IMG/VR virus record: IMGVR_UViG_3300042691_032880
Coordinates: 32,001-96,000 of that record
DNA length: 64,000 nt
Source: a virus
Reading direction: 5' to 3' (one strand)
Each line of letters begins with the position of its first letter. The stretch's first letter is position 1. Below are positions 2 to 17,133 of the stretch, piece after piece. Under the pieces are notes generated by a model. That model did no database searches. It had not been told where the DNA came from and was given only the letters and a program-made list of their open reading frames with translations. A program made the position numbers and the translations under genes.

Positions 2-271
2 CTCCGATGGAAGATAAAGGATGTTTTCCAACAGAGGTTCCCCGTTGTCATCCAGCCTTAAGTTTGTAACTCCGTTACGCCAGTCACCATGTCTTTGTAT
101 AAACTTGTTGTTATAGGCTATGGACCAAGCTCTTAACGCTGCTCTTTCATCTTGTTCAAAGAAATCTTTGGCACTTTGATACAAAAGTGAAGGTTTTCCA
201 TTAGGAGCTAATACCTGTTTACGGCTCTTGGTGGTTTCATCGTGTATTATTGAACACTTACTATTATCCAT
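2..271 (-). CDS. N-terminal part of a further giant virion/polyvalent-type protein (truncated by window edge)
   Basis: Not in the ORF track. Manual translation from ATG at 271 stays open to the edge: MDNSKCSIIHDETTKSRKQVLAPNGKPSLLYQ...HGDWRNG...LDDNGEPLL. The APNGKPS / GDW / DxNGEP pattern is typical of N-termini of giant phage polyvalent/crAss-like ejected proteins. Starts 3 nt after the RNAP stop. Confidence 0.8.
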   Translation of the reverse strand, partial: MDNSKCSIIHDETTKSRKQVLAPNGKPSLLYQSAKDFFEQDERAALRAWSIAYNNKFIQRHGDWRNGVTNLRLDDNGEPLLENILYLPSE

Positions 272-274
272 CGT

Positions 275-15200: not shown

Positions 15201-17133
15201 GTAACTTGAGTGTCTTGAGATGCTCGTTCAATACGTTCTTACTTACATCGCTACTGTTATAGAAGTTGTTAAGGACATCTATCATCCTTCCAACCGACTC
15301 AGCTTGTTCTTTTGATTGAGCTGAAAACGCCTTGTGTGCGTATTGCGCGCTGTTTACTATGGGGTTGACAAACATACCTGTCATAGCACCCATCAAGAAT
15401 ACCTTCGCACCTTGTTTACCCAACTGCGATTCAACAGCTTCATTAAATGACTCACCCCAATTGTTCACACCATTGCGATACAAGTCAGTGTAATAGTCTA
15501 CATAGAATGCATTAGTACCTTCTTGCAGGTTTTCCTGGAGACCTTCAACTACTTGAAAATTAGTGACTCCGCGCAATACATCCTTACCGATTTCCCATGC
15601 AAGTACTTTCTTTCCAAAATCCCTTTTGATTTGACCAGCAACACCGATTGTTCCAAACAAACCTTGGAAACCTTTCAGTTGGTAGTGTTTTGGTACACCT
15701 TTTCTGATTACGGTTTTGACACCAAGGTCCCTTGCAAGATCGCTACCTACGGCATTTTTGAGCTGAGTAAGTAACCTGGAATCCATTCCAAACCTTCCAA
15801 GAAGATTCCCAAACATGATCTTATTGCTGATAGCAAGTATCGCAACGTTGGTACTGAAGGTGGATCCAGCACTCTGGAATGCCATGTTTCTACGCTGAAG
15901 ATACTCCTCACCTGTGAGTGTTGTCTTACCATTTAACTCATCTAGAAAAGCATTATGGTCCATGAACTCCTTGTAGTTCGCACCCATTTCAATGGCTGCT
16001 TCACCAGCTGCCATCTGCCATTCTGCAAATGATCTACGGAGTCCACCTGCACCTATCTGCATGATTGCTCCAGTGGTCAACTCAGCATTTCTTGCAGCTG
16101 ATGCAAGTCTTGCAGCATCAGCCATGTGTCCGACAAATGGAATTTTAGATGCAATTTTCATCGCATTGTCCCATACGTTGACACCAGCTGCTGCACCAGC
16201 TAATCCTGCGTTGGTTGATGCATTCATCAACCTGAGATCTTCAACTACAAGCTTACCAGTTCTTGCTGGCTGTTGTAACATGTACCTGCTGGCACCAAGT
16301 TCGAAAGTTCCAGCTTTCGTAGTGGAAAGCTTTGCAATGTCATCCGTAGCGGAAGCATTGAACATTCTAACCACATTACTCCAGAAAGTATTAAGTTTGG
16401 AAGTGGTGTTTGCAGCTTGTCCTGCAACCACACCTGCAGCTGGAGCTACACCACCACGGGACGCAAGTGCTCCTGATACCAAAGATGTTGCAGCCCACTC
16501 AGTACCTAGTTCCGCCAGCGTACCGAAAGTATAACCGAGATTCTGTATTGTTTCAGCAAGAAATCCCTTGGTAAGGAAGTCGTCTTCGGTACCGCGTTCG
16601 TAAAATATCGGATTCTCCTTCTGACTCTTTTCGAGTTCATAAGCAAGCATTTCAGTCTCTCCCTCTGTGGGTTTGAGATAATCCGCATCAAGATTGAATA
16701 ATGCTTTTGCAGCTCGTGGCCATACGTATGCTGATTGTGAAAACGAAGCCATGAAACTGTCTTTGAATCCTCCCCATCCTGTGGCTACTGCATCCCATGC
16801 ATCCCAATTCTCCAACGCAAGCTTTTCGTTGTTAAGCGAAGGCATGTAGCGTTCATTATATATATTGGGAAACTGGTCATACCTCTCTTTTCCTTCCTGA
16901 CTATAGGTTACTCTGGTGGTATAGTCAGCAGCCTCTTGATCCTTACTGTATTTTGCAGAAGCATTGTCAACTGCGGATAAGAAAGGATCCCTCACTGGAG
17001 TAGATGGACTATCCATGTTCTGATCTTCCGCAACAACAGGAGCTGTCAAATTTGCATCAGGTGTCTGCATATGATCAGCAGACAACCCATTCATATCAAA
17101 TTCTTGGGAATCAATACCTAAGATGTTGTCCAT
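12238..17133 (-). CDS. Large virion cargo (ejected) protein
   Basis: 1631 aa. Gly/Ala-rich hydrophobic N-terminal third (AAGEAAIE and EGLQENLQ motifs, typical of crAss-like cargo), helical middle, Lys-rich tail. TAATG-coupled to the RNAP. Confidence 0.75.
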   Translation of the reverse strand: MDNILGIDSQEFDMNGLSADHMQTPDANLTAPVVAEDQNMDSPSTPVRDPFLSAVDNASAKYSKDQEAADYTTRVTYSQEGKERYDQFPNIYNERYMPSLNNEKLALENWDAWDAVATGWGGFKDSFMASFSQSAYVWPRAAKALFNLDADYLKPTEGETEMLAYELEKSQKENPIFYERGTEDDFLTKGFLAETIQNLGYTFGTLAELGTEWAATSLVSGALASRGGVAPAAGVVAGQAANTTSKLNTFWSNVVRMFNASATDDIAKLSTTKAGTFELGASRYMLQQPARTGKLVVEDLRLMNASTNAGLAGAAAGVNVWDNAMKIASKIPFVGHMADAARLASAARNAELTTGAIMQIGAGGLRRSFAEWQMAAGEAAIEMGANYKEFMDHNAFLDELNGKTTLTGEEYLQRRNMAFQSAGSTFSTNVAILAISNKIMFGNLLGRFGMDSRLLTQLKNAVGSDLARDLGVKTVIRKGVPKHYQLKGFQGLFGTIGVAGQIKRDFGKKVLAWEIGKDVLRGVTNFQVVEGLQENLQEGTNAFYVDYYTDLYRNGVNNWGESFNEAVESQLGKQGAKVFLMGAMTGMFVNPIVNSAQYAHKAFSAQSKEQAESVGRMIDVLNNFYNSSDVSKNVLNEHLKTLKLQTEYGQNMRDAVANGNKYQYFNNKDSALIQAVMYAKRTGTMDYMYQFLKGYGENFSEKEFKEAFGYTPKDLKKSSPKEVMDEIASNVNTFSELYDKYQTKYGLMLSLDEYMKDPSSKMKYSIRKAALMDAIETVAFAEAKGQQATVRSEEIIRRVSQLKSIGNSLASSWNTIVDSKEISDQVLILNNEIKSLQESGILDQNAKDIIASKQREIELLEKIKDEMYESVEEVDPNNPDNKIRYTRPKASRINSEMRSVADNLAEYLALKNKQAGLTSVVNKEEVYSAITDIYDYITLGKDHHEYMQAVNLLSDPDNMTKFYENSMDARAGAHARLLYDQLNMLKELGSEGQKFFENEDTQKLMQDLLEFSKTPYGTYKNYNKLQEIMNNLVEKKNELLLGMFKEAQEEIKKEQAKREEDIAIARSKLPISVYDLYDANKYDEADAYIAMRYNLDELADGFPYDSSDPAQRTINRHYQHPDGSRIAFDTVTIPATYELIAGEGEVPIDNFEKLRQYLDVIEEIKYQEYQAALNKPTERESAELVEELDNEKKKLINHVDQTVVLNGESGTLRMTPEGAFTIEWSDGAVTSLPESNEETTTDDYDGLSLAYPMLAPENAAVVSPNPNPVIEATEEGELAVDYFLDFDEVTGRKQLTAVQINGIYYTLEYNELGELSAFLWQQERRKGKNVKMIPQRLSVRNSDKGQQYAAVVNAFINFAMPEVPTDPQDMQDMSDALDEAIAAIDTVITEESTTKRVRQEIMDQFKLNKIINVNTPDNITELRTKFGNSETRGQMTADELVELALWAGDLRKKIKKQWSIYINNPIVNGFLTQLTKEYINPIDTLLTEKDKDGTKQARDRKATKRNTSKKERDAKSTEAGKPSKRKRGDETVPAESKPKKGAKKKSVADAVDQVQTSFEKKGKKAAAKTTRPSTTGMVNMRIGRETNMINKISSKKLKNIRESIDASIAAPVKDDGINPFNSLNENSTYCE
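12492..12659 (-). CDS. Possible nested out-of-frame small protein (55 aa)
   Basis: ATG at 12659 with A-rich leader (ACAGAAAAAGACAAGG). Product MEPNKQETEKLRSEILRKRNEMRSLLKLVSPQNANEVMRQYQQSLNQKREQRRKA is amphipathic-helix-like and overlaps the low-complexity tail of the 1631-aa gene. Confidence 0.35.
   Translation of the reverse strand: MEPNKQETEKLRSEILRKRNEMRSLLKLVSPQNANEVMRQYQQSLNQKREQRRKA

Follow-up and report, generated by a model that had tools for sequence, protein, structure and literature searches.

The giant proteins encoded at the start of the window studied here carry almost no cysteine (Cys), and the few Cys residues that they retain face each other across the breaks between consecutive genes. 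The window is a 64,000-nucleotide (nt) stretch of viral DNA, positions 32,001 to 96,000 of IMG/VR record IMGVR_UViG_3300042691_032880, which is complete at 125,114 bp and bears terminal repeats. Its first 20 kb consist of a run of consecutive giant open reading frames (ORFs), all on the minus strand. Three of these, encoding proteins of 1631, 3987 and 2293 residues (aa) in that order, make up the chain discussed below; the middle member is a homologue of a virion RNA polymerase (RNAP), and the upstream 963-aa cargo protein lies outside the chain. The pairing of Cys residues, its tie to gene breaks and its action at the protein level hold well beyond this genome, and the facing Cys residues of crassvirus giants are probably joined by disulfide bonds, as deduced largely by analogy with a solved structure from another phage.

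The positions of Cys in these proteins had been claimed in a preliminary description made by manual scan, which also gave the 963-aa protein as Cys free. Exact translation agreed on every point, and no additional internal Cys was found on exact counting. At the 1631/3987 junction the Cys residues are located at −2 and +3, and at the 3987/2293 junction at −4 and +6. The last member is cut by the window start and extends 6.6 kb past it (L105:393-7271); in the translation from the whole genome, its Cys is the only one over the full length. Together, the three proteins contain 4 Cys in 7911 residues (0.05%), each no more than six residues from an end that faces a gene break. The remaining ORFs of the genome contain 439 Cys in 31,221 residues (1.41%), a rate at which about 110 would be expected in the trio, which upholds the earlier statement that Cys is far scarcer here than expected. 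If 4 Cys were placed at random in the four proteins (8874 aa), the probability that all would fall within the 24 junction-facing positions is approximately 5e-11. The outer ends of the chain, namely, the N terminus of the 1631-aa protein and the C terminus of the 2293-aa protein, are free of Cys, and at the 963/1631 junction Cys is found on neither side. The genes are closely packed, with the start of the 3987-aa gene overlapping the stop of the 1631-aa gene (ATGA), and the two junction gaps are −1 and 3 nt. Homologues showed related ends: the last 220 aa of the 1631-aa protein are 31% identical to a homologue in locus L025 that terminates in ...SCEI, and Cys6 of the 2293-aa protein is invariant across four homologous N termini (alignment A3).

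By sequence comparison, the 3987-aa protein is assigned as a homologue of the virion RNAP, the phage itself being crAss-like and very divergent. This was deduced because tblastn against phage records matched 16 records, all crAss-like and all at the RNAP subunit (best E value 2e-7, 24 to 32% identity), and because the catalytic motif GSDFDxD was invariant in an alignment (A1) of the protein with crAssphage gp44, crAss001 gp50 and two relatives. The match to crAssphage KP06_gp44, annotated as the RNAP catalytic subunit, was weak and local (tblastn E 2e-7 to 3e-7; blastp E 2e-10; about 25% identity). The DFDxD motif has been named for the virion RNAP of the crAss-like phage phi14:2 (bioRxiv 10.1101/2020.03.07.982082). 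No PHROGs family was found for any of the four giant proteins, a general Pfam scan of them gave only subthreshold matches, and the 3987-aa protein had no match in a PDB sequence search. The phage is thus very divergent from phi14:2 and crAss001, while its polymerase belongs to the same family as their RNAP modules and shares with them both the GSDFDxD motif and the terminal-Cys pattern. Homology and gene order suggest that this polymerase, too, would be present in the virion and ejected. The premise of the preliminary description that such proteins are packaged holds for crAss001, where gp47, gp49 and gp50 were detected in virions by mass spectrometry and, according to that study, have to unfold in part for passage through the tail (PMC10172136).

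To place the pattern in a wider setting, IMG/VR was searched with an alignment of the RNAP motif, and the best 80 of 444 confirmed loci were analyzed with 10-kb flanks. Clustering of these loci gave 56 groups at an identity of 70% and 35 groups at 50%; the 70% clusters merely lower redundancy, and the junction counts are counts of clustered loci and not tree-based independent gains. ORF starts were set at the first ATG. Three loci (L050, L089 and L102) were read with TAG as glutamine and one (L097) with TGA as tryptophan, these codes being chosen as those giving longer ORFs; the giant ORFs of the former are open only with TAG as a residue and those of the latter only with TGA as a residue. In all loci together, 91 junctions were observed at which one plus-strand ORF of 500 aa or more follows another: 75 with Cys on both sides, 5 with Cys on neither side, 8 with an N-side Cys alone and 3 with a C-side Cys alone. 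With Cys-poor ORFs and one locus per 70% cluster, 73 junctions were left: 55 with both, 15 with neither, 2 N side only and 1 C side only. From this both-or-neither pattern (55 plus 15 versus 3), it was deduced that the two Cys residues of a junction act together. The junctions with neither correspond to the boundary between the upstream cargo genes and the first chain member. The single C-side-only case (the L067 group) was a start-codon artifact, as the second ATG yields MSC, and several of the N-side-only cases among the 91 junctions were RNAP proteins of crAss001-like genomes with the partner on the other strand, further ones being Cys-rich downstream genes outside the chain. The earlier expectation that terminal Cys residues should be conserved and paired across junctions in relatives was therefore confirmed, with 3 discordant junctions among 73.

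The placement of the Cys residues was narrow. The C-side Cys was penultimate in 33 of the 55 paired junctions and no more than six residues from the end in 54, while the N-side Cys was at position 3 or 4 in 43 and at positions 3 to 6 in all 55. Only 0 to 6 residues lay beyond the Cys at most junctions, and more than one Cys was present at just 1 of 146 ends. Short motifs were found to follow the N-terminal Cys. The motif MxxC[PI]NxN..[WF]KxL[V] occurred at 16 of 68 junctions (at least one of them doubtful), where it was paired with tails such as ...KCL, and it also occurred at a nonhomologous break in the relative G001 described below. MxCxYFVxGxW[IV]SExxFK was present at 5 of the 68 junctions and APNGxPSxLY at 4, including that of the 2293-aa protein.

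Three further IMG/VR records (G001, G002 and G003), retrieved with a 600-aa query, were analyzed as whole records. When 2908 aa of the polymerase were compared with these relatives, only one weak match was obtained because the genomes are too divergent; they share almost nothing alignable with the window beyond a GNAT-like cassette. The chain of G001 starts with pieces of 2601 aa (Cys eighth from the end), 3741 aa (Cys8 and the last residue) and 252 aa (Cys3 and −2) and, after an inserted GIY-YIG gene, continues with 252 aa (Cys3 and −3), 286 aa (Cys4 and the last residue) and 1987 aa (Cys3). This amounts to six pieces, five junctions and 10 Cys in 9119 aa, every one terminal. In G002, the pieces are 4125 aa (Cys at −2) and 2132 aa (Cys3), and in G003, they are 4955 aa (Cys at −2) and 1361 aa (Cys5). 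For the window's genome and the three relatives together, 18 Cys were counted in 29,603 residues of the block of giant genes, 18 of 18 terminal, while the other ORFs contained 0.97 to 1.41% Cys. In these four complete genomes, Cys was found within 10 residues of the facing ends on both sides in 8 of 8 adjacent pairs of the block, compared with 3 of 360 other adjacent same-strand pairs (Fisher P = 2e-14). Even G001, G002 and the window, which are close relatives, are split at different points, and the Cys residues shift along with the breaks, so that the predicted co-occurrence at differing split points was indeed observed.

The dependence on the gene break was also apparent from relatives in which the break is missing. 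Undivided giants with no Cys at all were found, comprising a complete ORF of 5642 aa and partial ORFs of more than 6689, 5628 and 2994 aa. A strict test for unsplit relatives spanning a junction gave no cases, and a relaxed version gave 45. The segment bridging the junction in the continuous relative lacked Cys in 40 of these 45 comparisons. The other five, which involved three subject proteins, showed one Cys in 91 to 208 bridging residues, and at least one of these proteins (from L089) has many internal Cys. In crAssphage, the last two modules are fused, and a single pair is left, with gp45 ending in ...SCM, gp44 starting with MSC and the end of gp44 free of Cys. The best explanation for the 1631-, 3987- and 2293-aa proteins is that they are parts, each translated on its own, of a product that in other crassviruses takes the form of one or two giant polyproteins. 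Compared with the unsplit L101, L037, L082, L097 and L102, whose alignment is contiguous, the split forms in four loci (L068, L070, L072 and L098) are longer by about 95 residues at the upstream C terminus and by about 60 at the downstream N terminus. These extra residues possibly represent a docking element that travels with the break.

Characterized phages showed the same arrangement. In phi14:2, gp67 has Cys1797 as its last residue, gp66 has Cys3 and Cys2179, and gp65 has Cys3, with no other Cys in these proteins; the presence of gp67, gp66 and gp65 in the virion by mass spectrometry is given in the record annotation. In crAss001, gp50 has Cys5, Cys1334 and Cys2404 (nine from the end), gp49 has a sole Cys5, and gp47 (2341 aa) has a sole Cys at −3 and is encoded on the strand opposite to that of gp50 and gp49. 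The minus strands of nine loci were scanned. A convergent giant ORF ending with Cys at −2 to −4 was found in five of them (L050, L083, L092, L095 and L103); L097 showed only a short Cys-rich ORF, and in L037, L080 and L089 the minus strand was devoid of ORFs of 300 aa or more. Since the partner gene in crAss001-like genomes is on the opposite strand, the Cys pairing was deduced to be a rule at the protein level rather than a DNA signal.

This deduction is consistent with the variety of junction geometry, which ranged from 4-nt overlaps and gaps of 1 to 30 nt to spacings of 480 to 915 nt where a gene is inserted, the Cys pairs persisting across the inserted genes. A GIY-YIG endonuclease gene was located exactly between two Cys-ended pieces in G001 (L001:4630-5307, E 1.7e-10; also with NUMOD3 and HTH domains) and in L091 (7625-8290, E 2.3e-8), which suggests that endonuclease insertion creates some of the breaks. 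Ferritin- or rubrerythrin-like genes of about 160 aa were found between Cys-paired pieces at two junction types (Pfam E 3.8e-15 to 3.4e-12), and a RepL-like gene is inserted at the L076 break. L072 has a near-identical ORF of 158 aa; the nesting of an iron/redox (ferritin-like) protein within a putative disulfide chain is curious. At the window's own junctions, there is no free-standing homing endonuclease gene between the halves.

The closest structural precedent was found in the cyanophage A4, where a disulfide between gp27 Cys1715 and gp26 Cys5 was seen by cryo-electron microscopy (PMC12002296). In the record of Anabaena phage A-4L, these two residues are the only Cys of the 1717-aa gp27 and the 1114-aa gp26 (−3 and +5), and gp29 has none. 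As in the window, consecutive co-directional genes encode ejection proteins from the capsid interior whose sole Cys residues lie near the facing ends. The A4 case differs in that a single bond links just two proteins, which sit in an ordered, T7-like pentameric core, and in that both an RNA polymerase and a multiprotein chain are lacking. The bond steadies the insertion of the gp27 C-terminal helix into a cleft of gp26 in the pre-ejectosome, and it is presented as a structural detail and not as a rule tied to gene breaks (PMC12002296). In N4-like phages (Schitoviridae; gp71, the virion RNAP, gp72 and gp73 of DEV), the giant polymerase and its operon neighbors are likewise ejected and nearly free of Cys, at 0.00075% in gp71 homologues versus 0.865% proteome-wide, for which passage through the oxidizing periplasm has been given as the rationale (PMC11445570). 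There, however, the polymerase is one chain and no terminal Cys is kept, whereas in the window's phage every facing end keeps one conserved Cys. In T7, gp15 and gp16 are likewise free of Cys and gp14 contains a single one, residue 2, again representing Cys suppression without terminal pairs.

The most probable link between facing Cys residues is a disulfide, as found in A4, the sole solved case of the pattern. Contact between the ends of the 3987-aa and 2293-aa proteins was also modeled, as the preliminary description had proposed for paired terminal peptides. Complex prediction with the last 200 aa of the former and the first 250 aa of the latter gave a score of 0.51 versus 0.00 for the best of three controls, with runs agreeing in at least 53% of contacts and a partner predicted local distance difference test (pLDDT) value of at least 62. 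In calibration, 58 of 80 solved complexes and 2 of 110 mismatched pairs attained the mark, and scores of 0.60 or below included 7 of those 80 as well as both mismatches that passed; small alignments of our own were used, and these counts hold only roughly. The prediction thus lends weak support to a contact between these ends. It is quite unlikely that the facing residues interact in some other manner, such as through a shared metal ion, another covalent bridge or as recognition residues of docking peptides. The both-or-neither rule indicates joint action and is silent on its nature, and the short conserved motifs following many N-terminal Cys residues would suit recognition. For a metal site, however, there is only one Cys per side, no conserved neighboring His, Cys or Asp is present, and the flanking residues vary widely, so that a site with four ligands is unlikely. 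Very little probability was assigned to a rejoining of the pieces by protein trans-splicing, in which the breaks would be fractured genes with split inteins, sometimes accompanied by a homing endonuclease. This idea was prompted by the extra sequence at one junction type, since the split forms of L068, L070 and L098 are about 155 residues longer than unsplit relatives, and it could also accommodate the GIY-YIG genes in G001 and L091. It was largely refuted by a Pfam scan and by inspection. No Hint or intein family was detected at E values up to 1 in ten tails, heads and pieces (both of the window's junctions with 200 aa, L070 and G001). The Cys residues are at the extreme ends and not where intein nucleophiles sit, the expected sites lack Cys, and the extra segments lack, by eye, a block-B TxxH or a terminal HN motif. 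Most junctions also leave too little beyond the Cys, and the extra sequence in G001 is only about 24 plus 67 residues. Fractured genes with split inteins and free-standing homing endonucleases were reportedly described by Dassa and colleagues in 2009. They resemble G001 and L091 in having a homing endonuclease gene between halves that must work together, and they differ in forming a peptide bond rather than the reversible disulfide proposed here, with neither a Hint domain nor splicing motifs in the crassvirus chain. The least credible explanation, to which next to no probability was assigned, is that the pattern reflects chance, base composition, an artifact of ORF calling or a nucleotide signal such as TGY codons in a coupling element. 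Short direct repeats with a Cys codon do flank some junctions, as with AAGTGT on both sides of the 3987/2293 break. The contrast of 8 of 8 with 3 of 360 pairs argues strongly against chance, and the varying geometry argues against a signal in the DNA; a junction nucleotide motif or target-site duplication was ruled out by partner genes that are convergent and nonadjacent in crAss001-like genomes.

If the link is a disulfide, its function may be as follows. After the particle leaves the reducing cytoplasm, bonds would form between Cys1630 and Cys3 and between Cys3984 and Cys6, the absence of other Cys residues preventing wrong cross-links. The three pieces would thereby be joined covalently, without branches, into a chain of about 7,900 residues whose outer ends are free. 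They would be held at 1:1:1 in the capsid and would follow one another through the tail into the host, where thiol reductants would cut the links and free the polymerase and effector modules. We consider the chances to be even that this statement as a whole is correct, that is, a disulfide chain for co-retention and ordered co-delivery with reductive release; bond formation once the particle is released, joint delivery via the tail and the freeing of the pieces by reduction are steps that we infer only. With a single Cys at each end, the product can only be linear and unbranched, and this linearity, together with the near-universal retention of Cys at breaks of proteins that leave via the tail, suggests that continuity itself is selected. 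Alternatively, the same disulfides could merely staple the pieces into a stable cargo or core, with no part in drawing the proteins through the tail. Such a staple might serve co-packaging, resistance to DNA pressure or the holding of the polymerase in an inactive state in the particle. It has parallels in crAss001 virions, where inter-subunit disulfides in the tail and at the portal vertex act as structural staples (PMC10172136), and the docking-like extra residues at one junction type would also suit it. A staple could sit anywhere in an interface, yet the observed positions are confined to the last and first few residues; the single Cys per end gives a linear product, and crAss001 showed no ordered density for the RNAP proteins gp47, gp49 and gp50 (PMC10172136). 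On this balance, stapling is a strong rival that we nevertheless regard as the correct account with only a minor share of the probability. A more far-reaching version of the chain proposal is put forward tentatively and is rather unlikely to hold in full. Here, a Cys-ended tail and an M-x(1-4)-C head would act as a portable "cysteine coupler" that makes the fission of giant proteins harmless in crassviruses, yielding a redox-reversible chain of up to six proteins threaded as one string. Homing endonucleases and other insertions would create the breaks, at which types such as ...KCL followed by MxxCPNxN..WKxLV recur although the breaks are nonhomologous, and cutting by host thiols would time the release of the polymerase and of effectors (GNAT, ADP-ribosyltransferase and nuclease).

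A number of observations weigh against an ordered, threaded disulfide chain. The A4 bond is located in an ordered, static capsid core and fits a staple as well as a tow-line. New termini adjoin in the fold, which makes a terminal pair the easiest staple to evolve after any split; position alone is therefore no proof of threading. No measured bond between terminal Cys residues of any crassvirus was found in the literature searched, which was mostly open access and without supplements. For crAss001, both reduced and nonreduced virion samples were run in mass spectrometry, and the text of the paper, Extended Data aside, does not discuss the Cys residues of gp47, gp49 and gp50 (PMC10172136). The same source considers the order of extrusion to be likely set by packing and mutual interactions, and its tail constrictions are described only as less than 50 Å, wide enough that strict linearity is not required. 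Fused polyproteins have been said to be "likely cleaved" (bioRxiv 10.1101/2020.03.07.982082), in which case continuity would be dispensable. The window's genome yielded no phage thiol oxidase, so oxidation would have to be spontaneous; the search for Erv/ALR was uninformative, as its control matched nowhere. The genome also showed no thioredoxin and no glutaredoxin. Furthermore, the rule has exceptions. In L037 (6053-20329), a true one, the last protein starts with MQC (Cys3) while the preceding 2723-aa giant has no Cys in its final 130 residues, and two other ORFs intervene between them. In L080 and L085, no partner for Cys3 of the RNAP protein is visible in the locus. In crAssphage, gp47 (857 aa; L022, BK010471, 5042-7615) has a single, penultimate Cys and the next protein, gp46, has none; the partner of gp47 might be a second copy of gp47. 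Lastly, gut crassviruses retain 7 to 22 internal Cys in the RNAP protein, and freedom from other Cys is therefore not universal.

Beyond the polymerase, the chain appears to carry effector modules, as deduced from the 252-aa piece of G001 at L001:5307-6062, an ADP-ribosyltransferase of the ART-PolyVal family (Pfam E 3e-13). The 2293-aa protein contains a PD-(D/E)XK nuclease domain at residues 486 to 606, outside the window (E 4.9e-6, above the Pfam cutoff). The 3987-aa protein contains a GNAT-like module of about 190 aa that matches segments of the giants in G001 (84% identity), G002 (75 to 76%) and G003 (40%), proteins that can otherwise barely be aligned, although the Pfam GNAT match itself is weak (E 0.056 in this protein and 0.0027 in the G001 piece). 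Two of the matching segments are L001:4001-4561 and L002:4001-4621, and the module precedes the RNAP core in the window and follows the break in G002. By its sequence it looks like an effector cassette exchanged within the chain. Polyvalent proteins of phages and conjugative elements, according to what Iyer and colleagues are said to have reported in 2017, are single chains or cleaved polyproteins and not disulfide-linked chains. They resemble the crassvirus chain in being giant, delivered and multimodular, with swappable effector domains such as the GNAT-like and PD-(D/E)XK domains of the window's phage and the ART-PolyVal domain of G001. Just upstream of the cargo genes, a 1535-aa protein (window 20043-24650) has ten Cys residues within 86 residues (1199-1284) at CxC and CxxC spacings and is otherwise free of Cys; this cluster is probably a metal-binding knot.

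Table 1. Chain members, neighboring and internal features in the window, and genes inserted at junctions of other loci (coordinates are those of the window unless a locus is given)
Feature	Position	Strand	Remarks
First chain member, 1631 aa	12238..17133	minus	Sole Cys is residue 1630 (codon 12244-12246), penultimate; tail ...STYCE
Middle chain member, 3987 aa, virion RNAP homologue	275..12238	minus	Only Cys3 (12230-12232, MSC...) and Cys3984 (287-289, tail ...NKCKNP)
GNAT-like module, residues 114-300 of the 3987-aa protein	11339..11899	minus	Weak Pfam GNAT matches and identity to segments of relatives
GSDFDID catalytic motif (DFDxD type), residues 2836-2842 of the 3987-aa protein	3713..3733	minus	Invariant in alignment A1
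Last chain member, first 90 codons	1..271	minus	Sole Cys is residue 6 (254-256, MDNSKC...)
Upstream cargo-like protein, 963 aa	17136..20027	minus	No Cys
Ferritin-like gene	L063:13097-13585		
Ferritin-like gene	L068:8884-9354		
Ferritin-like gene	L070:8889-9362		
Ferritin-like gene	L098:8809-9291		

The preliminary description had stated that no account of such a chain was known. For the crassvirus chain this stood, as the literature searched yielded no account of paired terminal Cys residues in the RNAP or cargo proteins of crassviruses. It did not stand for the parts: the A4 bond (PMC12002296) and Cys suppression in the ejected proteins of N4-like phages (PMC11445570) are in print. The new element is thus the single Cys retained at each facing end.

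In the human gut, crassviruses outnumber all other phages, and the finding bears on the packing and delivery of a protein load that exceeds 600 kDa and includes the polymerase with which infection begins. If the chain proposal is true, an order-wide rule of one Cys per facing end, none elsewhere and only at splits would constitute a concrete, testable mechanism that holds the pieces together and preserves their order. The ease with which these genes split and fuse would be accounted for as well, and the single structural detail seen in A4 would become a principle common to unrelated podophages.

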